Below are positions 5,812 to 29,533 of a stretch of 64,000 bases of DNA, in pieces (positions within the stretch are counted from its first letter, which is position 1; each line of letters begins with the position of its first letter). The translations under genes and the position numbers were made by a program. This DNA is from Scenedesmus sp. PABB004 (taxonomy: Eukaryota): the NCBI GenBank assembly GCA_014905635.1, contig JABVCE010000008.1:1240001-1304000 (forward strand), read 5' to 3'. The notes beneath the pieces were generated by a model. It saw only the letters and a list, made by a program, of their open reading frames with translations, did not search any database and was not told the DNA's origin.

Positions 5812-8800
5812 TGCGTGTGTGGGGGCAGGGGGTGTTGATCAGCGCCTGCGCCCGCCGCTGGCTGCGCTGCGCGGTGCCGGCGGTCCCAGCGGCGCCGCAC
5901 CCCGCCTCGCCGCCGCCGCACCCGCCGCACCCGCTGACCGCCCCGCCCCGCCTGCCGCCGCCCTGCCGCCGCCCTGCCACCCTGCCGCCGCCGCCCTGCC
6001 GCCGCCGCGTGCGCGTGCCAGGCAAGTTTTACTGCCCCCGCATGGCCGCCATGAACAAGCCCGCCTACACCGCCATACAGGCGCGCCGGGCGGGTTTTGG
6101 GGTTTTGTGGGTTTAGGGGCTTGGGGGCGTGCGGGGGCGTGCGGGGGCACGCGGGGGCACGCGCACGTGCGGCGGCAGGATGGGGAGGGGCTTCCTTCCT
6201 GTGCTGCTGCAAGCCAGCACACACATTGTGCCCCCGCCCCGCCCCCTCTCCCGCCCCCGGCGGCGGCGGCCGCGCAGGTCCACTCGCCGACCAAGCCGGT
6301 GCTCGTGTTTGTGAGCAGCCGCCGCCAGACGCGCCTGACCGCGCTCGACCTCATCTCCCTCGCCGCCGCGGACGAGCGCCCCGAGCAGTTTGTGCACATG
6401 ACCCCGGACGAGCTCGGGGTGAGGGGGCACGGGGTGACAGGGGGGGGGGGGGGGGGCAGGGGGGAGTCGAGGGGGCGCGCGCGCGGCCGAGGGACGCGGC
6501 GGCGCGGCGGCGCCTGCGGGCGCGGCCCGTCCGCCCCGCTGAGCCGCGCCCCGCGCGGCCGCGCCCCGCCGGCGGCGCCGCCGCAGGACGCGCTCGCGCG
6601 CGTGCGCGACGCGTCGCTGCGGCACTGCCTGCAGTTTGGCGTCGGGCTGCACCACGCGGGCCTCGCCGAGCCGGACCGGCAGCTCGTGGAGCGGCTCTTT
6701 GTGGCCCAGAAGATCCAGGTGGGGGGCTGCTGGCACGCGCCACACGCGCCGCTGCCCGCACGCAACGCACCGCACCGACGTGTGCACGTGCTGTGCACGC
6801 TGCGCGCCGCGTTGCACTCGCGCCGCACGCACCGCACGCGCCGCACGCTCCGCGCCGCGCGCGCCGCGTCACGCGCCGCGCGCCGTCGCAGGTGCTGGTG
6901 GCGACGAGCACGCTGGCGTGGGGCGTCAACACGCCGGCACACCTCGTCATCATCAAGGCACGGGGGGGGGGGGCACTCGCACACTCCTCGGCCGCCCGCC
7001 CGCCCGCCCTTGCTCGCCTGCGCACGCCTGCCTGCACACTCTCCCCCCTCCCCCCAAACACACACGCCCACATGCCCACGCGCCTCCCACGCCCCGCCTC
7101 CCCGCCTCCTCCCCCCCTCCCTTCCCCCCTCCCCCCCCCCACACACACCCACGCCCCCCCCCCCCGCAGGGCACCGAGTACTACGACGCCCCGGGGCGGC
7201 GCTACGTGGACTTCCCTATCACCGACGTCCTGCAGGCGCGCGCGCGCAAACGGGGGGAGGGGGGCACGGGGCGTGTGCGCTGCGCGCGCTGGTTGGGGGT
7301 CATCATCGGCCTCGGCGCCCGCCCGCGCGCCCGCCCACGCCGCCGCCGCCGCCGCCGCCGCGCGCATACCACCCCCCCCCCCCCACACACACACACACAC
7401 ACATCGCCGCCACGCCGCCACGCCGCCGCGTCCCCCGCGCGCACCCGCCGCTACAGATGATGGGCCGCGCTGGGCGCCCGCAGTACGACACCAAGGGCGT
7501 CGCGGTCATCATGGTCGCTGAGCCCAAGAAGGCCTTTTACAAGCGCTTCCTCTACGAGCCCTTCCCAGTGGAGAGCAGCCTGCAGGACCAGGCACGGCGA
7601 CACACGCGCGGCGTGTGTTGACGAGTGGGGCAGGGCGCGTGTGGACGGGCGTGCGTGCGGGCGGGCGGGTGGGGTGTGGCCGCGCAGCGTGGCGCGCGCG
7701 CCCACGTCCTCTCACCCGCCGCCGCCCCTGCCGCCGCCGCCGCCGCAGCTCGCGGACCACCTGAACGCAGAGGTCGTGGCGGGGACGATCGGCACGCGGC
7801 AGGACGCGCTGGACTACCTCACATGGACCTACCTCTACCGGTGGGTGTGGGAGGGTGGGGGGGGGGGGGGGCCAGGGGCAGAGGGCGCCGGGGGGTGCTG
7901 GGGAGCCTCGCCGCCCCGCGCCCGCGCCCACACGCGCTCACACGCCCACGCCCCGCGCCGCGCCGCGCCTGGCGGCGGGGTTTAGGCGGCTGCTGCAGAA
8001 CCCCGCGTACTACGAGCTGGAGGAGGCCAGCCCTGAGGGCCTCGCCGCGCACATGAGCTGGCTGGTCGAGGACGCGCTGGCGGCGCTGCAGGACAGCGGT
8101 TGCGTCACGGTGCGCCGCCCGCGCGCGCGCGAGGCGAGGCGGCGTGCACCCGCAGGGCCCGCCCGCGAGCCCCGCCGCGAGCCCCGCCGCGAGCCCCGCC
8201 GCGAGCCTCGCCGCGAGCCCCGCCGCGAGCCGCGCCGCGCCGCGCCGCCACGCAGCTGGACGAGGCCGACGACGAGGACGCGGCGGGCAACGGCGGCGGC
8301 GTGGTGTCGCCGACGCCGCTGGGGCGCGTCGCGAGCCTCTACTACCTGCGCCACGCGACGGCGGGGCTCATGGCGGCAGAGTTTGCGGGCCGCAACCTCG
8401 ACCACGCCCAGGTGGGCGGGTGGGCGGGTGTGTGTGTCTGGGTGGGCGGGCGGGCGGGTGGGTGGGTGGGTGGGTGGGTGGGTGGGCGGGCGGGTGGGTG
8501 GGTGGGTGGGTGGGTGTGTGAGGGGGGCTGACGCGCACCCGCGGCCGTCCAGCCGGCGTGGCTCGGCCGACGCCCAACCCCGCCCGCCCGCCCACGCCCT
8601 CGCGCCTGGCCAGGTGCTGGACGTGCTGTGTGCTGCGTCGGAGTACGACGAGCTGCCGGTGCGGCACAACGAAGACGTCATCAACGCCACCCTCGCGCGC
8701 CAGGTGGGGCGGCGCGCCGGCGCGGCGCGGGGCGGGGCGGGGCGGGGCGGGAGGCAGGGCGGGGAGGGCTTGGGGCGCGTGCAGGGAGGGAGGGCGGCGC

Positions 8801-10239
8801 GTGGCGCGGCGGCGACGTGCTCGCCGGGCGCCGCCGAGCGCGCGCGCGCGCGCGCACGGCGGCGGGGCGCGCAGGTGCGGCTGCCCGTGGACGTGCGCCG
8901 CGCGGACGACCCTCACATCAAGGCCAACCTGCTCATCCAGGCGCGCCCCGCGGCGCCCGCATGCACGCCCGCCTGCCGCCACGCCGCGGCGCCGCGCCGC
9001 GCTGCAGCCCCGGCCGCGCCGAGCCCGGCGCAGCGCCCGGGGCGGCCCTGCGCTGCCCCGCCCCGCCCTGCGGAGGCGTGGCCGCGCGCCCCGACCGCCG
9101 CGCCCGCCGCGCCGCGCCCGCCGCGCCCCGCGCCCGGCGCGCGCCCGCCGCGCAGTCTCACCTGTCGCGGCTGGCGCCGCCGATCAGCGACTATTTGACC
9201 GACACGCGCGGCGTGCTGGACAACAGCGTGCGCCTGTGCCAGGCGCTCGTGGACGTCGCGGCGCAGGGCGGCTGCCTGGGCAGCGCGCTGGCGGTCATGG
9301 AGCTGGTGCAGGCGCTGGTGCAGGTGCGCCTGCGCGGCGGCCCGCCCCGCCGGCGCGCGCGCGCGCGCTGCGTCCGCGCGTCTGCCCCCCCTGCCCAGCC
9401 CCCCCCCCCCCACACACACACACCGAGAAAAAGCACACAGCACTCACGCGGTGCCCGCCCCGTCCCGCCCCGCCGCGCAGGCGCGGTGGATGGACGACAA
9501 CAGCCTCACCACGCTGCCCCACCTCGACGCCCCCGCACCGCTGACCGCGCTGGAGCGCCTCGGCGTCGTCGCGCTGCCGCAGCTGCTGCACGCGCTGCGG
9601 CCGCCCCCGGCCGGCGGCGGCGCGCCGCCGGGCGGCCCCGGCGGCTCGCAGGTGTGCGCCGCGCTGTCGGCCGCGCTCGGCCAGGAGGCGGCGGCGGAGG
9701 CGCTCGCCGTCGCGGAGCGCCTGCCGCTCGTCGACGTGGCCTGGCGCGCCGCGCGCGCGGCGCCGCCGCCTGGCGCCGGCGGCGGCGGCGCCGCCGCGCC
9801 TGGTGACGGCAGCGGCGGCGGCGGCGGCTGGTCGCTCGAGGTGGAGCTCGTGCGCCGCGGCGGCAGCGGCCGCGGCGGCGGGCGCGGGCGCGGCGGCGGC
9901 GCGCCGCGCGTGCACGCGCCGCACTTCCCCAAGCTCAAGGAGGAGGGCTGGTGGCTGCTCGCGGGGGCCGGCCTCGAGCTGCTCGCGCTGCGCCGCGTGT
10001 CGTTCGGCGGCCGCGGCAGCGCGCGCCTGTCGCTGCCGCCGCGCACCGCCGGCGGCGGCGCGGTGCACAGCGTGACGCTCTACCTGGTCAGTGACTGCTA
10101 CATCGGCCTGGACCAGCAGGTCGAGGTGGTGCTCGACGACGCGGCCGCGGCGGCGGCAGCAGGCGCGGCCGCGGGCGCGGGCGCGGGAGGCGCGCCCCGC
10201 GGCGGCGGCTGGGCGGCCGGCGGCGGCGGCGGCGACCAG

Positions 10240-10281
<42 letters not shown>

Positions 10282-10413
10282 GGCGGCGGGGCGCGGCGCG
10301 CGCGACGGCAGCAGCAGCAGGCCACACGGCAGGCGCACGCGGCCGCGGACGCGCCGCCGCCGGCGGACAGCGACGCGGCGATGTGGGAGGACGAGCCCGG
10401 CGGCTGCGCGTGA
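1..10413 (+). CDS. ASCC3: ASCC3/Slh1-type Ski2-like tandem DExH helicase with Sec63 domains; 5'-partial, about 31 introns in the window
   Basis: Spliced exons give [35 protein letters not shown] and [12 protein letters not shown]. The second cassette gives [49 protein letters not shown] and GRAGRPQYD. Sec63 motifs ELPVRHNED and [13 protein letters not shown] follow. Stop TGA 10411-10413. These motifs fit ASCC3 better than BRR2. Confidence 0.93.
1131..1185. repeat. Interstitial telomere-like repeats, head-to-head (GGGGTTTAGGGGTTAGGGGTTAGGG ... CCTAAACCCTAAACCCTA), at the 5' end of an ASCC3 intron
   Basis: Read directly; includes the perfect 14-bp palindrome GTTTAGGCCTAAAC at 1161-1174. Confidence 0.85.
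2345..2510. repeat. (CA)n microsatellite and C-runs in an ASCC3 intron
   Basis: Long ACAC tract interspersed with poly-C. Confidence 0.9.
8163..8231. repeat. 12-bp tandem repeat (CCGCGAGCCCCG) x about 6, intronic
   Basis: Read directly. Confidence 0.85.
8412..8515. repeat. (GGGT/GGGC)n tetranucleotide repeat, intronic, G-quadruplex-prone
   Basis: Read directly. Confidence 0.85.
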
Positions 10414-10425
10414 GGGAGGGCGACG

Positions 10426-10430
10426 TGTAA
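10426..10430 (+). terminator. TGTAA chlorophyte polyadenylation signal of ASCC3
   Basis: TGTAA starts 13 nt after the stop codon; UGUAA is the known chlorophycean poly(A) signal. Confidence 0.65.
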
Positions 10431-10714
10431 ACGCGTCGCGATCGTGGGTCACGCCACCGCACGTGCCTGTGTGACCAGCAGACTGCGGGCCCGCATGCGG
10501 GGTCGCTTGCCGGCAAACTTCAGCAGGGCGTGATGCGAGCTGCGCGCGCCACCATATTCTTCTATACGTTTTGAGTTGTGTTTGTTTCACGGCGGGGCCC
10601 GGCCCTGGTGGAACTTTTTCGAAACATTCGGAGGTCCATCGGGGCGTCGGAACGGGGTCGGGGCGACCGGAAAAACTCGGATTGGGGCAGTTTAGATTAT
10701 TTTGCGTGATCTGC

Positions 10715-10729
10715 TACATATACTATTTT
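10715..10729 (+). promoter_or_regulatory. TA-rich upstream element of the tRNA gene
   Basis: TACATATACTATTTT at about -20 to -35 from the tRNA, inside an AT-rich island. Confidence 0.45.
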
Positions 10730-10748
10730 GTTCGCGCCGGAGTGCCAT

Positions 10749-10819
10749 GCTGCGCTCGTATAGTGGTAGTATAACTGCCTTCCAAGCAGTCGGCCTGGGT
10801 TCGATTCCCAGGCGCAGCA
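10749..10819 (+). tRNA. tRNA-Gly(TCC)
   Basis: Acceptor stem GCTGCGC/GCGCAGC plus discriminator A; A-box in D-loop (TAGTGGTA); anticodon arm ACTGC-CT-TCC-AA-GCAGT; T-arm CTGGG-TTCGATT-CCCAG; 71 nt, no intron. Confidence 0.95.
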
Positions 10820-10856
10820 ACCTTATGCTCCCGCCAACAACGCTGGCGACGCCGGG

Positions 10857-10962
10857 ACACCGTGGCGTGGCGCGTGCGCATCGCAAGCTCATCACCACCA
10901 ATGTGCGGCAAACCACATTGGTGATGATGAGCTTGCGATGCGCACGCGCCACGCCACGGTGT
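10857..10962. repeat. Near-perfect inverted repeat (49-bp arms, 1 mismatch, 8-nt loop) at the 5' end of the LINE
   Basis: 10857-10905 is the reverse complement of 10914-10962; loop CGGCAAAC. Confidence 0.95.
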
Positions 10963-11609
10963 GCCAAGCCCTGGCGCGCTGGTGGCAGCTCAAGGTGCCC
11001 AACACGTACAAGGAGGCGGCCTGGCGGCTCACGCTGCAGGCCTTTCCGACTGCCAGCCGCATGCAGCCGGGGCCGGGCATGGTGGACTATTGTGTCTACT
11101 GCTGCCCAGGGCCGCCGGAGGCGCTGGAGCCAGCGGAGGCATCCGGCCTGGGCGGCGCGCTGCACCCGAGCGAGGCGCACCATTTCTGGCGGTGCCCGGT
11201 GGCAGGCGAGGTGTGGGGTGAGATCGAGAAGCAGCTGGCTGCTTTTGACTGGTGGCCGGACGGCGCGCGCTTGCACTGCAGGCACATCTGGCTGGGGCGC
11301 CGGCCGCGGGAGCAGCTGTCCCAGATGGTCTGGGACATGGTCTGCATCGCTGCAATTCACGCGTGCGAACGCGGCCGGCGCGTGGCCTGGATTTTCCTGC
11401 AAGTGCGGGAGCGTGCCTTGCCCTTTGACGTGGCTCGAGACATTGTGAGGCGGGCGGCAGTGAGTGCGTTTTGGGAGGCGCTGGCCGACTTTGCGGCGAC
11501 CGCTTACGTGCCCCGCGCTGCCCGTACGCCCGACCTGACGGGCCAGCCCTTTCTGGCTTGGTGCACTCCCCGCGTCGCGGGGAGTGGCTTGGTTGTTATT
11601 CGGCGATGA
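10908..11609 (+). pseudogene. C-terminal fragment of LINE ORF2 (zf-RVT-like CCHC domain); RT and endonuclease domains missing
   Basis: WWQLKVPNTYKEAAWRLTLQAFPTASRM...CVYC...HHFWRCPVAGEVW...HIWLG matches the L1-clade C-terminal pattern. Confidence 0.8.
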
Positions 11610-11912
11610 GGATGGTGGCATTCTCCCAGCACTCCCGCGCGCGCGGGTTGCGCGCTCGCGGGCACGCGCGACCCGCGGTCACCGGCTGCCGCCGACACTG
11701 AAATACTGCTACTGCCCAGCAGCGAGCGATCGGTCAAGGTGTGTGCGCGGAGACAGCACTGAGTGTGTGCAGGCGACGCTTTTGGGCGTGAGCGTGGCCA
11801 CGGGCGGCAGCTGCGCGTGAGTGACTGACTATACCAAAGTGATGGGATCCGTGTTTGCGCCGTAGGCGCTTGTTCACCCCTGGTAACGCCCTTCTTCTGG
11901 CGACGCCGGGAG

Positions 11913-12452
11913 TCACCCTGACATCGCCTTCGCGGGCGGGCGGCCCGGCGCAGCCTCTCCCGACACCCTGAGCTCCGTCGCCTCCTGCGCCAGCAGAGCG
12001 CGCGAGGGCCTCCTCCAGGCCCTCGCCAGAAGCAGTGGGCGGGCGGCGGCAGCAAGCGAGGCAGCGAACGAGCGTCGGCGAGGGGCGAGCGCGCGCGTGC
12101 AGGGCGCCCCGCAGCCTGCGGGCGGCGGTGGCGGCACTCACGCCTGGACCACGCGCTGCTCGATCACGCGCTGCTCGCCCACGCGCTGCAGCTGCTCCAG
12201 CCCAGCCGCGCCTGCGCCGCCGCGCCCTGCGGCGGGAGTGCTCGCCGACGAGGCTTCCCAGAACCGCTGCCGCCACGCCGCAAGGGCTGGCTCGCGACGC
12301 GCGTCACGGCGCTCCCGACTAGTCTGGCGTGCGTCCACGGAGGTCTGCCGCCGCGTGTGCGAGCGCGCGGAGCTGGAGGAGGTGGCAAAGCGTGTGTGAG
12401 CGCGCCGGCTGTGGCGCTTGCGCTGCAGCATGGCGGGCTGGCCATTGACCAC
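11913..12452 (-). CDS. Possible small two-exon hypothetical protein
   Basis: ORF 12138-12452 ends at a GTGAGT donor (about 12141) and a downstream frame stops at 11913; no recognisable homology. Confidence 0.2.
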
Positions 12453-13112
12453 TCATCACCAGTTGCTTAGAGCAACCCATGCACCCTCATCATTCTCATG
12501 TCCCTTTGCGATGCACCAGAGGCGGCGAACGAGCGTTCCTAGTCGCGCCCGGCGCTTGGCGTGAGGGCTCGAGCGCATGGCAACGTTGCGGTTAACCGCC
12601 TCGGCTTGTTGCTTGCTCAGTCGACCGCCTCGGATGGCGTACCTGCACGCCACACGTGCCGGCAGGGCGGCGCCGGCGGCCCGGCACAGCTCGGGCCGCG
12701 GGACGGGCGTGCGGGCCCGCACGCGCCGTGCTGCGCGCTGCGCGCTGCGCGCTGCACCCGGCCGCTGCCGGCACGCCCGCGAAGAAGCGACAGCACGAGC
12801 TCCCCGTCAGCCACGCCCGCGGACGCCCGCGGCCGCCGGAGCCACGCCCGCCGGCCAGGGCGAGCCCGCGGTTGTGTGACGCGTCGAGCAGCTCCACAGC
12901 GTGTGGCGTGCCTGCAGACGACACACGGCCGCCCGCGAACGCCGGGCCCAGCCAGCCGGCTGCGCTGAGGCCGGCCGGAGCGGCGGGCGTCAGTAGGTGC
13001 CCCGGCGGCGGCGGCTGGCAACGCCGCGAGCGAGGGGCTCCGCCCGTCCGAGGTTGCACCCGGATCGCAAGCACCGGCCCGGCCTCGCGCCCGGGCCGCT
13101 CCGCCGGCGCCC

Positions 13113-15777
13113 TCATGCCGCGCCTGCGCCGCCGCCGCACGCCGCGTCGTCGTCGTCCTGCAGCAGCTCCAGCACGCCCAGCGCGTCGTGCGCCGCGGCG
13201 AGGCGGCCCAGTCCCGCGGCCTCGAGCCGGCCGGCGCGGCGCCAGAGCGAGCGAAAGGCGCGGACGTTGTGCGCTGCCTCCCGCACGGGGTCCTCGTTCA
13301 GCGGAAAGGTATCAAAGTAGAGCAGGGGCGGCTGCTGCTGCGGCGGCGGCTGCGAGCCCTCGGGTGAGCCGCTGCCGCCGGCACGGGCGAGGCGGCGCAG
13401 CTGCACGACGAGCTCGAGCGCGGCGCGCGGGGAGGCGGAGCCGAAGGGCAGCCCGTCCTCCGCGCCCAGGCGCACGTGCGCGTCGTTCAGGTGCAGGCCG
13501 TGGAGCCGGCCGGCGCGGGCGGCGAGCGCGACGCTCGCCGCGGCGACCTCGCCCGCGAGCAGCATGTGCCCCACGTCCAACACGACGCCCAGGTTGGCGG
13601 CGCCCGCCTCCTGCACCAGCAGCAGCGCCGCCGCGGTGCTCGGCACGAACGCAAAGCGCGACGCCGGGTCGGTCGGCTTGGGCTCCAGGCCCACGCGCAG
13701 GCGCGGGCAGGCGGCGGCGAGCGCGCGCAGCGCTTCCACGCTGCGCGCCCACGCCGCGTCGTGGTCGGCCGCCAGGAAGTGGTCGTGGCCGTCATACGGG
13801 CTCCACACCACCACCGCGCCCGCGCCGAGCGCCTCCGCCCAGCGGCACCCCGCCGCCGCGAGCTCCAGCGCGGCGCGTCGCAGCGCGGCGTCGGGGTTTG
13901 TGAACGCACCCGCGCGCAGCTCCGGGGGGAAGCGCAGGTTGACCGCGCGCGCGCGCAGCCCCGCGCTCCGCAGAGCGTCCAGCACCTGGCGTTTTTGGAG
14001 GGAGGGGGGGGGGGGTTGGCCGCCGCGCGCGCGATGCGGCACAAACACCAGGGCCACCGCGCCGCCCTCGCGCGTGCGCGCCCACCTCCTGCGTTGTCAC
14101 GCCCTGCGCGTGCTCTGGGTAGTTGAGGTGGGCCTCCGTCAGGCCCTCAACGCCCGCCTGGCGCGCAATCCAGCCCAGCGCGCTGTCGGCCGCAGCCGGG
14201 TGCGGGTGCGGCGGCGCGAGGTCGCGGCGGGCGCGCATCGAGTTGAGCCGCGACGCAAAGCCGTACGGGCACTCGTCGCCGGCGGCGGCGCCCGCCGCGC
14301 CGGCGTCGCAGCTGCCGCCGGGCCCGCAGCTGCCGGTGCCGCCGGTGCCGCCCACCGGTGCCGCCGCGGCGGCAGCCGCGGCCGGCCCGGGCTCGGGCCA
14401 GGCCAGCCCCGCGTCGGCCAGCAGCTGGGCCACCTCGGCGCGGCGCGGCAGGCTGGGCATCGCGCCCAGGCGGGACACAGCGATCGCGCCCGCCGCCGCG
14501 GCAAACCGCAACGCTTCCGGCAGCGTCCGGCCCTCCACGAGCGCCACGGCAAAGCCCGCACGGAACGCGTCGCCTGGCGGCGGCGGCGGAGGTGGCGGCG
14601 ACGGTAGGCGTTGGCGGCCGGCGGGCAGCACGCGCCGTCGGCCCGCACCCGCAGCGCCCGCCAGCCGCACCTGCTGCCGTGCCGTCCACGACGGCGCCGC
14701 CCGGCGGCGGCAGCGCCGCCTGGCGCAGCACTTCCCCACGCGCCGGCACAAGCAGCGCGCCGCGCTCGGCGAGCGTGACGAGCACGGCCCGCGCGCCCCG
14801 CGCGGTCAGGCTGCGCGCCGCCGCCACCACCTCCTCCTCGCTGCCGGTCGGCATGCCCAGAGTGAGCCGCTGCAGCTCGCTCTCGTTTGGCACCAGAACA
14901 TCCAGGGACTCCAGCAGCTCGTCGGGCAGCGGCCGGTCCTCGCCGCCCGCGTCCTGCGGCCGCGCGCGCGGGCGGCGGTCGGCGGCGGGCGTGGCGTGCT
15001 GCGCGCTGCCGACTGCGCGCGGGACACGCGGCCGCGCGGCGCCACGCCTGGATGACCGCCACGCCCGCCGCCGCCGCCGCGGCCGCGACGGCGACGTTGA
15101 CGTGCTCCGGCACCTCGCGCTGCAGCAGCAGCGCGCCCGCCCCGCGCAGGCGGTCCCCGAGGTGGTCGTCGCCGCCCTCCTCCCACGCCGCGTTGGCGCC
15201 GGGGAGCACCACGCTGGATGCGGCGCCGTCAGGCTCGAGCAGCACGACACCTTGGCCGCTCGGGAGGCCGACGTCGGCGCAGCCCGACACGTCCACGCCC
15301 GCGGCCGCGAGCTCGCGGCGCAGCATCGCCGCGTGGCCGTCGTCGCCGAAGCGGCACACGAAGCGCGCGGCGCCCGGCGCCGCCGCGAGGCGGGCGGCCG
15401 CCACGGCCTGGTTGGCGCCCTTGCCGCCGACCGCGAGGCTCGCGGCGGCCGCGCGCGCGGTCGTCGTCTCGCCCTTGCCCGGCAGGCGGTGCACGGGGAC
15501 CGTGATGTCCACGTTAACCGAGCCCACCACCACAATCGACGCCCCGTTGGCAGCCGCAGCGCTGCCGGCGGCGGCGGCGGCGGGCGCGCGCTCGGCCGCA
15601 GCGGCGTGCCCGGCGGCCGCGCGTCGTTGGCGCGGGCAGCAGGCGGGCCCACGATGCCCCCGACCCTTACCCTGTCGCCAGGAGCAGCAGCAGCAGCAGC
15701 AAGCGGGCGGCCAGCGCGAGCGGCGGGCGCCGGCGGCGCCGGCCGCTGCTCTGCTGCCGGCACCGCGCGGCGCCCAT
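13113..15777 (-). CDS. Fusion protein: N-terminal signal/TM segment, PfkB ribokinase domain and xylose-isomerase-like TIM barrel (5 exons)
   Basis: ATG 15777, MGAAR...RLLLLLLLLATG, GTAAGG intron. Kinase motifs VVVGSVNVD, GGKGANQAVAAARL, VPNESEL, DGTAAGDAF. Isomerase motifs GAFTNPD, LEPKP, LDVGH, HLND, YFDTFP. Stop 13113. Confidence 0.85.
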
Positions 15778-16353
15778 TTAGCCCGAGCGCGCAGGGGCCG
15801 GGAGGGCGGCGCGGTTGCGCGTTGGCCGCGCGGTGTTCGCGGCGGGAGGCTGTGCGGGACCGACCGCCGGAGGCTGCGGGCCAGCAGGGAGCAGCAGGCC
15901 CCGCGGGCCGCGCCCGCGCCAACCGCCGCGAGCGCGCCGCGCGCAGGCGCTCGCGCACTGCCACGGCGGCTGGGACGCCGCTGGCGGCAGCGCCGTCTGC
16001 CGCGTGCCGGGGCTGCTGGTGACGCCTGTCGCGACGTTCACCGCGCCGTCATTGCGTCGCCTTATGTGTGTGCTAATGTGCAGGCTTATGTGCAGCAGCA
16101 GCATGCAGAGGCGCTCCATCCTGCGGTCAGTCATGGGTGGTGCAGTGCTCGCGCACGGTCGAGTGAGTACACGGCGCGCAGTCAGTCATGGTCAGGTGAG
16201 GTCATGGTCATCCAGGCCGCCGTTCAACGCGTGTCACCCCCCACTGGTCAAAAGCGTGCGCGGGGCAACGCGGTTCTTCGGCAGCACACAGCAGAGAGCC
16301 CCATCCCCCCTCTCTCCAGCCCCGGGGCCCTCCAGCAGGCCCAGCAGCAGTGC

Positions 16354-26326: not shown

Positions 26327-28092
26327 TCAGGCGCACATCATGCTCGCGGGCTGGCTCGTCATCCAGTCGGCGATGCTGGTGCTGCCGGCGTTGACGCCAA
26401 ACGCAAACGCGACGCCCGGCGGCCGTGCGCCGGCCGAGCCAAACGGGCGCAGGCCGCCCGCGGCGTCGAGCGCCGGCACCGGCGCCGCCTCGCTGGCGCT
26501 GGGGAAGCGCGGCGCGGGGCAGGGCGCGGGCCGCGCCGCCGCGGGCGGCGCCGGCGCGGCCGGGCCCGGCGCGAAGAGGCCCGAGGCCATGCACATCGCG
26601 AGGCGCTGCCGCCCCGCGTCCGGCCAGCTGCCGCCATCATCGGCGAGCATGTCGGTCGCGTTGTCGGCGGCCTCCGAGCTCGCGTCGTCATCGGTGCCGC
26701 CGCAGCACGGCGCGGCGCCGGGCGACGACGTGCCCGAGCAGCTGCTCGGCGCGGCGGCGGGCCAGCTCGGCGCGCCGCCGCCCGTGCTCGCGTCGCCCGC
26801 GCCGCCCTGTAGCCAGCCCTGCAGCGCCACGCTGATGGTCGTCGGCTGCTGCTGCCCCGAGGGCTGCTGCCCCGAGAGCTGCGGCTGCGCCAGCATCACC
26901 GCCACCAGCGGCGGCGACGCCGACCGCGCGGGCGCCGCTGCCGGCCCCGCCGCGGCCTGCATGCTGACCTGCAGCAGCTGCAGCAGCTGCGCCTTGCTCA
27001 GGTGCTCGTGCGCGTACGCGAGGACCGCGGCCTGTGCTGCGGGCTGGCCCGCCAGGCCCTGCACGCCGGCGCGCACGACCTCGAGCGCGCGCGCCGCGAC
27101 CGCGGGCAGCTGCAGGCGCTCCGCGAGCGCGAGCCAGCGCAGCGCAAAGCTCGGGCGCGCTGGGTCCATGCCAAACGCGCGCCCCGGCTCCAGCAGCGCG
27201 CCAGCAGCGCGCTCCAGCAGGCAGGTCATGGCGTACTTGTCTGCCAGCAGCAGCACGCGCTCGAGCAGGTCCTGCGGCACGCGCCGGCGGCCGCGGTGAG
27301 GCCGGGCCCGGCGCGACGCGCTGTGCGCGCGCGCAAGCGCGGCGTGCGGCGCGGCGCGGCGCGGCGCTCACCCAGTCGAGCGGCGCGGCGCTGGCCGCCG
27401 GCACGGGGTAGACCCGGTCCAGCGCGGCCGCCCAGGTGGCGGCGTCCTCGTCGACGTGCAGCAGGTACGCCAGGCCGTGCGTGCTCTCGAGCAGGTGCGG
27501 CGTGGGGTAGAGGTTGATCATGTCGCGCAGCACGGGGCTCCAGCACGACACCTGCGCAGGGACAGGGACGGCGCGAGCGCGGCGGCGGCGGCGCGTCGGC
27601 GGCGGCGGGCCGCCGCGCGCGCGCTGCTGCCGCGCGCGCACTGCCGCCGCTGCCGGCCGCGGGAGGATGCCAGGGCGGGCGGCCTGCGCACCAGCTGGCT
27701 GTGGACGTGGTGCACCGCGCCGTCCCCGCACTTGAGGCGCGTGTCCGCGCGCTCCGCGGCGCCCCAGTGCTCATCGTAGCGGCGCGTGCTGCGGGAGCGG
27801 GCGCGCGGGGCGGTCGGCGGCCGCGGGGGGGGGGCGCCAGATTTTGCTGGGCCATGCCGATACTGGCGCCGGCCAGCGCGCCCGGCGCCCAGCTCGCCCC
27901 CGCCCCGCGCCGGCGGTGCGGCGCTGGGCCGCCGCGCGCTCGGCCGCGCAGCAGGGGCCGTGCGGCGCCCGCGGCGCGCCGGGCGGCCGCTGCCCGCTCG
28001 CACCTGCGGCCCAGCTCCGCGCTGCGCCGGCGCTCCGCGGCGTCAAAGGGGCTGTGCCGCAGGTCCAGGGAGCGCGTGCCGCGGCCCCACAT
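26327..28092 (-). CDS. BTB/POZ-domain protein
   Basis: Exon 1 28092-28004 (MWGRGTRSL...) joins 27788 in phase 2. [31 protein letters not shown]...|[21 protein letters not shown]...[10 protein letters not shown] is a typical BTB pattern. Confidence 0.8.
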
Positions 28093-28525
28093 CGCGCGCT
28101 GCGTCCTGGCGCGCGCGCCTCGGTCCGCGTGGGAGGGCGTGCCCTCTCCGGCGTGCGTGGCGTGCGCGGCGTGTGCGTCGCGGCCCGCGTGCGCGCTGCG
28201 TGTTGCGGCCGAGGCGGGCGCGGCAAGGCACGCCGGGCCGGATTCGCTTCCATAACAGAAATAAAGCCTGGGCGCCCGCCGCCCACCGCCGCAAGCTGGC
28301 TGGGCGCCGTCGCAGGCGGCGCCCGCCGCCCGGGCCGGCGCCTGGCGCGCGCCCCACGCCGGCGCGGCGGCGGCGCCTCGAGCAGCACAGCGCCCGGCCG
28401 CCGCCTGGTGACGTGCCACCTGGCGGTCGCGGCAGGGCAACCCTGCCAGCAGCCCCGCGGGCGCGGCGGCCGGGGGGGGGGGGGGCGTGCTCCGGGCGTC
28501 TCGGCTAGCCGCCGGCGCCCTCCGC
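27708..28525. repeat. Inverted duplication 1, arm A (RabGGTase-beta end and 3' region, BTB promoter, exon 1, intron 1, part of exon 2)
   Basis: Reverse complement of 37706-38538, near-identical. Confidence 0.92.
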
Positions 28526-29533
28526 CGCCGCGGCGTGCGCTGCGCGCAGCCGCGCGACCGTCTCTTCGGGCAGCGCCCACGCGGGGTCGACACGCGCGAG
28601 CCCGGGGTGGCCCATGAGCGCCAGCGCGGCGACGCCAAAGAAGGTGTGGTACACGTCGGCCATGTCGTCGGGGCGGTCGCTGATGCCGCCGTCGTCCTCG
28701 TCCTGCGTCGCGGTGCGCGCGCCGCGGCGGGTCGGGCGCGCGCTCGTGCGCACGCCGCCGGGCGGCGTGCGGCGCGGCGTGGCGCGGCGCGGCGCGCCTG
28801 GCAGTGCAGTATGAAGCGGCTCAGCGCCTGCTGGTCGATCCAGTGCAGCCGGCCCAGGATGGCGAGGCAGGACAGGCACCACCAGCTGTAGCACACGTCC
28901 TGCAGCTTTTCTGGCCGCCCGTTGAGCCCGCCGCTGCGCGTCTGCCGCTCGCACAGCCTGCGGCGCGCGCGGCGTGGGCGGGAGGGCGCGCGAGCGGCCC
29001 CGCTCCAGCACGCGCCGCCCGGGCGCGCACCACCACGCCACGAGGTCTTGGTCCGCCGCGTCCAGCCGCCCCGCCAGGCTGAGCGCGCCGATGCAGGTAA
29101 ACACCTGGCCCGCGTGCGACTCGTTGCCTGCACGCCGCGGCGGCGCAGCGGACGCGTCGGCGCCGCCGCGCCGCTGCGCGGCCACCGCGTCGCCGCTGCG
29201 CCGCGGCCGCTCGGCAGTGCGCCGCCGTGCTGTCGCACCTGGCGTGCAGCCAAAGCCGCCGTCAAAGTTTTTGCACGCCTCCACGAACCGCACCGCGGCC
29301 GGCACGTCGAGCGCGGGCAGGCGGCCCAGGATGGTGCAGCTCAGCAGTGCGCAGTAGGTGAACCTGCGGCGCCCGGCGCGGCGCGGGCGGCGTGGGTGTG
29401 GGCGGGGCGCGGCCGACGCGCGGCGCGGCGCGTCAACCCGCAGCGGGCTTGGGCGCACCGCGTGTCAATCTCGCCCCACGAGTCGCCCGCGAACGAGCCG
29501 TCCGGCTGCTGCAGCCCCGCCACGTCTGCAGCA

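Follow-up and report, generated by a model that had tools for sequence, protein, structure and literature searches.

Does a LINE fragment that lies just behind a tRNA gene in a green alga owe its position to that gene, or did an ordinary insertion come to rest there? The locus belongs to Scenedesmus sp. PABB004, a chlorophycean green alga of the order Sphaeropleales, and was described in a first-pass annotation as a 5'-truncated L1-type retrotransposon inserted downstream of a tRNA-Gly gene, with the suggestion that its family may target tRNA 3' flanks. The genome is listed at 39.8 Mb in 77 contigs, with 78.5% GC, 7,092 genes and 1.31% repeats (PMC12571836, Table 1). The stretch of DNA analysed here, which we call the window, comprises 64,000 nt, and its 78.8% GC fits the listed value. 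All coordinates given in the first-pass annotation proved correct when the sequence was re-read, and the features of the locus are as follows.

10749-10819, + strand: tRNA-Gly(UCC) gene, intact cloverleaf, oriented like the element (Rfam RF00005, ARAGORN)
10820-10842, + strand: tRNA 3' trailer or spacer, 23 nt, no run of at least 4 T (sequence, T-run scan)
10843-10857, + strand: 5' copy of the target-site duplication (TSD), 15 bp (exact-repeat search, shuffles)
10858-10913, - strand: inverted 5' segment, 56 nt (inverted repeat, run contigs, alignment to P0002)
10914-11609, + strand: direct part, C-terminal coding part of ORF2, 5'-truncated, stop at 11607-11609 (ORF, homologues)
11091-11195, + strand: putative CCHC zinc-knuckle region with C42, C45, H71 and C76, numbered in the 213-aa translation beginning at 10968 (invariant columns, zf-RVT match)
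11610-11896, + strand: 3' UTR, 287 nt (sequence, ORF stop)
11857-11869, + strand: 3'-UTR hairpin GCGCC-GTA-GGCGC (RNAalifold on 4 sequences)
11891-11896, + strand: CTTCTT tail, not poly(A), of a length that varies between copies (sequence)
11897-11911, + strand: 3' copy of the TSD, 15 bp (exact-repeat search, shuffles)

The tRNA-Gly gene and its genomic setting

The Rfam tRNA model matches 10749-10819 on the + strand at 64.4 bits (gathering score 29), and ARAGORN places a tRNA-Gly(tcc) at 10748-10822 as its sole tRNA call in 64 kb; the two programs thus agree with the earlier description of an intact tRNA-Gly(TCC) gene that is the only one in the window. The gene has its own AT-rich upstream region, and the 23-nt spacer reported between it and the TSD can be read directly at 10820-10842. 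Both the tRNA gene and the insert are housed in a gap of ~1 kb between two convergent genes, a Brr2-like helicase gene (+, to ~9.8 kb) and an AP_endonuc_2 gene (-, 13116-14096), identified by Pfam on raw ORFs. Window GC is 77-83% almost throughout and falls to 0.695 in the 10-12 kb bin, to 0.51-0.66 at 10500-11000 and to 0.51-0.58 at 10500-10800, which makes this gap the lowest-GC spot of the window. At the window's GC content all six frames contain long open stretches; the host genes recognized by Pfam on raw ORFs are these:

to ~9.8 kb, + strand: Brr2/SNRNP200-like helicase
13116-14096, - strand: AP_endonuc_2 TIM barrel
14142-16048, - strand: PfkB kinase
27229-29464, - strand: prenyltransferase
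~35 kb, + strand: FYRN/FYRC
~37.3 kb, + strand: Eapp_C
~40.3 kb, + strand: Rieske
~55.7 kb, - strand: SBF-like transporter
59-62 kb, + strand: TrkA_C / CitMHS transporter

Two side observations concern transcription and annotation of this gap. A T-run scan of 10820-13000 gave no run of at least four T behind the tRNA-Gly gene; the first TTTT lies at 11243, within the element, when the insert is present, and 2,118 nt past the tRNA end when the insert is removed in silico. It must be the case either that Pol III termination is different in this 79%-GC genome or that transcription reads through into the 48-bp hairpin at 10858-10961, and transcripts of the latter kind could in principle, to speculate, give rise to small RNAs against the LINE. 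Separately, a stop-to-stop frame at 10770-11609 is open through part of the tRNA, the spacer, the TSD and the inverted piece into the element, and a gene caller could make a chimeric protein model of it.

Identity of the insert

The + frame, already open upstream of the insert, runs to the stop at 11607-11609, and its translation carries a putative zinc knuckle whose residues C42, C45, H71 and C76 are invariant in 16 of 16 aligned sequences; aligned to the relative P0010, the window knuckle differs from those of the relatives by an extra insertion between CxxC and HxxxxC. The expectation that this ORF would match LINE zf-RVT profiles holds only weakly, in that Pfam zf-RVT does match it (E 0.0033) but with 18.5 bits, below the threshold of 27.5. 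It is therefore the homologues, and not the ORF's own zf-RVT match, that identify the insert as L1-type. The top match, P0002 (677 aa), shares 99% identity with the window ORF tail over the latter's first 90 residues and carries the NCBI label 'LINE-1 retrotransposable element ORF2 protein [Scenedesmus sp. PABB004]'. Among 6,124 candidates, a word-indexed search confined to longer proteins gave 26 at E <= 0.001; apart from P0002, these are ~46-54% identical across the whole query and include metagenomic proteins of 1,411-1,433 aa. An exhaustive HMMER search of cluster representatives gave 525 matches with E <= 0.001, of which 85 reached <= 1e-10 and 10 reached <= 1e-30. A search among proteins of near length found no further copies above 57% identity.

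The domain content of these relatives is that of an L1-type polyprotein. Among eight relatives examined with Pfam, RVT_1 is above threshold in five, Exo_endo_phos in three, and zf-RVT appears in six at E <= 0.01, with a best score of 25.8 bits and always below 27.5. P0010, P0011 and P0022 combine Exo_endo_phos and RVT_1 above threshold in a single ORF and represent full-length relatives. Among solved structures P0010 matches human L1 ORF2p best (E 4e-41, residues 12-784, endonuclease through RT), compared with only ~1e-12 for R2 proteins, and the nearest ESM Atlas clusters show the same three domains (endonuclease, RT, CCHC/zf-RVT). On sequence grounds, the insert can be assigned to the 3' end of an APE-RT-CCHC, L1-type LINE. 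The description of the locus as a 5'-truncated L1-type retrotransposon with a TSD beside an intact tRNA-Gly gene in a green alga is upheld by these homologues, the P0002 label and the TSD. The 5' truncation has deprived the window copy of its APE and RT domains, without which it would be unable to move by itself.

The first-pass annotation had also called this the only transposable element in 64 kb, and two screens agree, with the proviso that short or non-coding elements would escape both. At E <= 1e-6, a cut that the insert's own zf-RVT match is too weak to pass, none of 228 stop-to-stop ORFs of at least 180 aa matches a family of reverse transcriptases, integrases or transposases, and tblastn of five family proteins against the window gives a match at this locus only.

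Insertion boundaries and the inverted 5' segment

The window contains the 15-mer CTGGCGACGCCGGGA exactly twice, at 10843-10857 and 11897-11911. By chance 0.06 matches are expected at up to one mismatch and none of 100 shuffles gave two or more, in keeping with the perfect 15-bp TSD originally reported. Between the two copies lies an insert of 1,039 nt (10858-11896) whose 3' terminus, CTTCTT, can be read directly at 11891-11896, again as first described. It lies 23-38 nt downstream of the tRNA and shares its orientation. The insert thus bears three marks of L1-type integration: the perfect 15-bp TSD, truncation at 10914 and an inverted 5' piece.

This last mark is a detail new relative to the first-pass annotation. 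A near-perfect hairpin opens the insert, in which 10858-10905 pairs with 10914-10961 at 47 of 48 positions with 8 nt between the arms, and the inverted segment is the reverse complement of the element's 8 nt upstream of the truncation point together with the first 48 nt of its body. Those 8 nt are found in two metagenome runs, in one contig each (X1 record 5 and X4 record 20). Both contigs match the element from 10914 to its 3' end and, upstream of 10914, go on with sequence coding for the residues that P0002 has there; the reverse complement of the last 8 bases of this upstream sequence forms the loop, 10906-10913. With a = 10914, the layout of the insert is TSD, reverse complement of a-8 to a+47, element from a onward, TSD. 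The arms differ at one position, at which the inverted arm encodes the same residue as P0002, and therefore it is the direct arm that holds a later change or RT error. At the inversion joint 2 nt (CA) are shared, and 3 of the 4 bases at the TSD end, GGGA, match the element's complement immediately past the inverted part.

In twin priming, as Ostertag and Kazazian reportedly described it in 2001, synthesis of a second cDNA starts within the RNA from the top-strand nick, and the two cDNAs are later joined. The geometry of the 5' inversion is what twin priming predicts, and this mechanism is favoured because loop 10906-10913 is inverted; snap-back self-priming of the first cDNA predicts a direct 8-nt loop and is rejected. 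A miRNA family assignment for the hairpin was likewise rejected: MIR1033 reaches 54 bits on each strand, its gathering score being 70, and any long perfect hairpin gives such matches.

Age and other copies of the element

For further copies and an empty site, contigs of 4 freshwater-metagenome runs from 4 studies were aligned to 10000-12800. All four runs have contigs ~99% identical to the element (10 differences in 984 nt, 5 in 830, 2 in 360 and 0 in 151). Two near-identical copies in the runs leave the window sequence at the 3' end, with flanks unrelated to each other and to the window, and at least one copy extends further at the 5' end than the window copy does. Run contigs break at repeat ends, none joins 10857 to 11897, and the unique flanks are barely covered (X2: 10419-10801; X1: 11904-12079). 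In run X1 the element contig has a depth of 14.4 against 2.1 for the flank, a ratio that is not a copy number and that hints at several element copies. The perfect TSDs, the open frame and the ~99% identical run copies together indicate that the window copy is young, and the ~99% identity of run copies with unrelated 3' flanks indicates that the family is mobile, multi-copy and recently active.

Two further observations bear on strain and composition. In run X2 a 382-nt contig covers the upstream flank of the tRNA (10419-10801) at ~95% identity (19 differences, 3 gaps); for the element, this run gives ~99.4%. Either the run contains a second strain or flank and element evolve at very different rates. 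Element GC is ~59-78% in 100-nt windows, below the 79% of the host, with relatives in other algae at 50-56%, which fits either a recent arrival or a composition held by constraint.

Related loci in metagenome and genome contigs

Collection scans used the C-terminal alignment (A1) as query. Metagenome contigs yielded 5 loci, 4 of them convincing; prokaryote genome contigs yielded 2 (L006, L007), both in a 3.1-Mb bin (G001) labelled uncultured Synechococcus; and no locus was found in the viral contigs scanned with the same alignment. A search of the whole Synechococcus-labelled bin with P0010 returned the same two contigs only. L006 and L007 are full-length eukaryotic LINEs with open frames of 1,611 aa and 1,338 aa, and their presence in that bin is evidently algal contamination. 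None of the related loci is a near-identical copy of the window's element.

Some of these loci are nevertheless informative about one another. L002 and L006 represent one element inserted twice (99.7% over 5,248 nt), the two diverging past an A-rich tail, and L001 and L003 have another element in common, diverging after ...CTCT. Each of the latter contigs holds two same-orientation copies 50-300 nt apart (L001 50-1114 and 1404-2315; L003 1-1155 and ~1206-1266), which suggests clustering or nesting in those algae. Just upstream of the truncated copy in L001, which starts near 1404, is a (CTT)4 run, and the 3' flank of this copy is CT-rich.

The region upstream of ORF2 in the full-length relative (L002 350-1820, L006 130-430) contains many internal direct and inverted repeats, which give spurious hairpin-RNA matches, and a putative 637-aa 'ORF1' at L002 168-2081 may not be a real gene.

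3' UTR, hairpin and tail

The 287-nt 3' UTR of the window copy is comparable to that of L002 (283 nt) and holds a hairpin for which RNAalifold, on 4 sequences, gives 5 pairs, one of them covarying (C-G in two sequences, A-U in two). The consensus GCG(C/A)C-GTA(T)-G(G/T)CGC is found in the window and its relatives (L002 ~6585-6600; L003 ~1118-1131; L001 ~1064-1078), ~30 nt before the tail, and is followed by GTAAC and the pyrimidine tail. This conserved hairpin is a candidate recognition element for the reverse transcriptase, and its conservation suggests that 3'-end recognition may be stringent.

Tail length is variable, as other copies stop matching the window after 11894 or 11897. Tails of the family and its relatives are CTTCTT, CTCT and (CT)n, A-rich only in the L002/L006 subfamily. 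The window copy thus ends without the poly(A) or A-rich tail that serves as a criterion for an L1-type element; poly(A) is not universal among L1-clade lineages.

How the copy came to lie beside the tRNA gene

We consider it probable that the insert is a young, dead-on-arrival copy of an L1-type LINE, placed by TPRT in the 3' flank of tRNA-Gly(UCC), and that its adjacency to the tRNA most likely reflects no family-wide targeting rule. To judge from the anatomy of the insert, the bottom strand would have been nicked opposite 10842/10843 and its 3' end would have primed on the pyrimidine tail of the RNA with a 2-nt CT overlap; a top-strand nick 15 nt further on would have produced the 15-bp duplication; the freed top-strand end (...GGGA) would have primed again inside the RNA, giving a 56-nt antisense cDNA by twin priming; and the two cDNAs would have been joined at the 2-nt CA microhomology, leaving an inverted 5' piece and a 983-nt direct 3' piece. 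The copy may then have been tolerated in the ~1-kb gap between convergent genes, one of few non-genic, lower-GC spots, in which the tRNA is found too. Surviving insertions would be concentrated in such gaps because nearly all else in the genome is gene. Understood in this manner, the locus is a clean textbook case of L1-style integration in a chlorophyte, with TSD, 5' truncation and twin priming, by a family active recently in a genome with very few repeats.

The principal alternative, which we regard as unlikely, is targeting in the manner of Dictyostelium TRE3: an element protein would be tethered to the Pol III complex (TFIIIC/TFIIIB), the endonuclease would nick tens of nt downstream of the tRNA, and the flank would act as a safe harbour. 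The sole copy does lie 23-38 nt behind the only tRNA in 64 kb and in the same orientation, a position with a chance of ~1e-4 per random insertion if ~100 tRNA genes are assumed in the 39.8 Mb. The layout equals that of TRE3, likewise L1-clade, as the available text of a 2018 review describes it (PMC5911963), and a safe harbour is what would be expected in a compact, TE-poor genome, this host having 1.31% repeats in the published table (PMC12571836). Furthermore, an AT preference of the endonuclease leaves the exact spot unexplained because the nick site itself is GC-rich. The target sequences of the three copies are without a common motif, which fits a choice based on position and random insertion equally well.

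Several considerations argue against such targeting or are neutral towards it. This is one locus only, singled out because of its tRNA adjacency, and the caution attached to the original suggestion, that one locus cannot prove targeting, stands for this single copy. The tRNA and the insert sit in the same ~1-kb low-GC gap between convergent genes. Neither ARAGORN nor Rfam at E <= 1 detects a tRNA in any of the 7 related loci, which is weak evidence in that nearly all of these contigs start inside the element, 5' flanks are mostly missing, and the relatives are ~50% identical and come from other algae. The only informative 5' junction belongs to the L001 copy that begins near 1404, and the 1.4 kb upstream of it is free of tRNA genes; in L001 and L003 relatives adjoin other family copies rather than tRNAs. 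The 3' flanks recovered from the runs cannot reveal a tRNA if the element inserts downstream of it.

If targeting were nonetheless real, the window's family would be the first tRNA-gene-targeting LINE of the green lineage, evolved independently in a ~40-Mb, 78%-GC, repeat-poor alga, a proposition that our analysis leaves doubtful. No report of a tRNA-associated LINE in green algae was found in the portions of the literature accessible to us, and the available text of the 2018 review gives insertion downstream of tRNA genes as known only from dictyostelids, with no mention there of 'alga' or 'plant' (PMC5911963). With such a family, Pol III-directed LINE integration would have arisen independently outside amoebae and yeasts, and an industrial alga would offer a natural safe-harbour integration system.

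It is quite improbable that the target was chosen by pairing of the pyrimidine tail (CTT/CT) with nicked DNA, or by Zepp-like self-nesting, the copy beside the tRNA being an off-target product. The tails of family and relatives (CTTCTT, CTCT, (CT)n), A-rich in one subfamily, the (CTT)4 run before the truncated L001 copy and its CT-rich 3' flank, and the paired copies within 300 nt in L001 and in L003 all agree with such a preference, and the window TSD begins with CT, which could extend the tail. The window target, however, is no microsatellite and has no second copy nearby, and the three flanks of the window's own family lack a common motif; tail-guided or self-nesting insertion agrees better with the relatives than with the window copy.

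Finally, a chimeric retrocopy, in which RT switched template from LINE RNA to tRNA (U6-L1 chimeras are a precedent for such switches) and the tRNA is part of the insert, would account for a 5'-truncated LINE with a like-oriented tRNA directly upstream but can be dismissed, since the 5' TSD lies between tRNA and element and so places the tRNA, with its own AT-rich upstream region, outside the insert.

Comparison with known systems

The probable ordinary insertion described here can be set beside four kinds of known element. TRE3 of Dictyostelium is an L1-clade element with APE-RT-ZF organization that inserts 40-150 bp downstream of tRNA genes, oriented as these genes are, in a compact host genome, according to the available text of the review (PMC5911963). 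The window copy resembles it in lying downstream of a tRNA in the same orientation and in a compact genome; TRE3 differs in having many copies at 40-150 bp and an oligo(A) end, whereas here there is one copy at 23-38 nt and a tRNA in 0 of 7 related loci. Dewa, a zebrafish LINE, is described in the accessible part of its report as residing in the spacer of tRNA-Leu arrays (PMC3706591). The association of a LINE with a tRNA spacer is common to both, but Dewa is sequence-specific for a repeated spacer, whereas the three known target sites of the window's family share no sequence.

Nearer in host lineage, the comparison takes in Zepp, Kibi and Koshi, Zepp-like algal L1 elements being ones that nest beside their own copies. 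Likened by description rather than by sequence, the window's element is green-algal and L1-type as Zepp/ZeppL are, and its relatives in L001 and L003 adjoin other copies; unlike Zepp/ZeppL, the window copy is solitary. With respect to L1-clade LINEs in general (human L1 ORF2p; plant and algal L1 with a zf-RVT C-terminus), the family departs from those with poly(A) in its CTT-type tail, and its zf-RVT scores reach at most 25.8 bits against 27.5. It resembles them in that full-length relatives encode a single polyprotein with APE, RT and a putative CCHC domain and in that the window copy combines a TSD of the variable-length type, 5' truncation and a 5' inversion of the twin-priming type.
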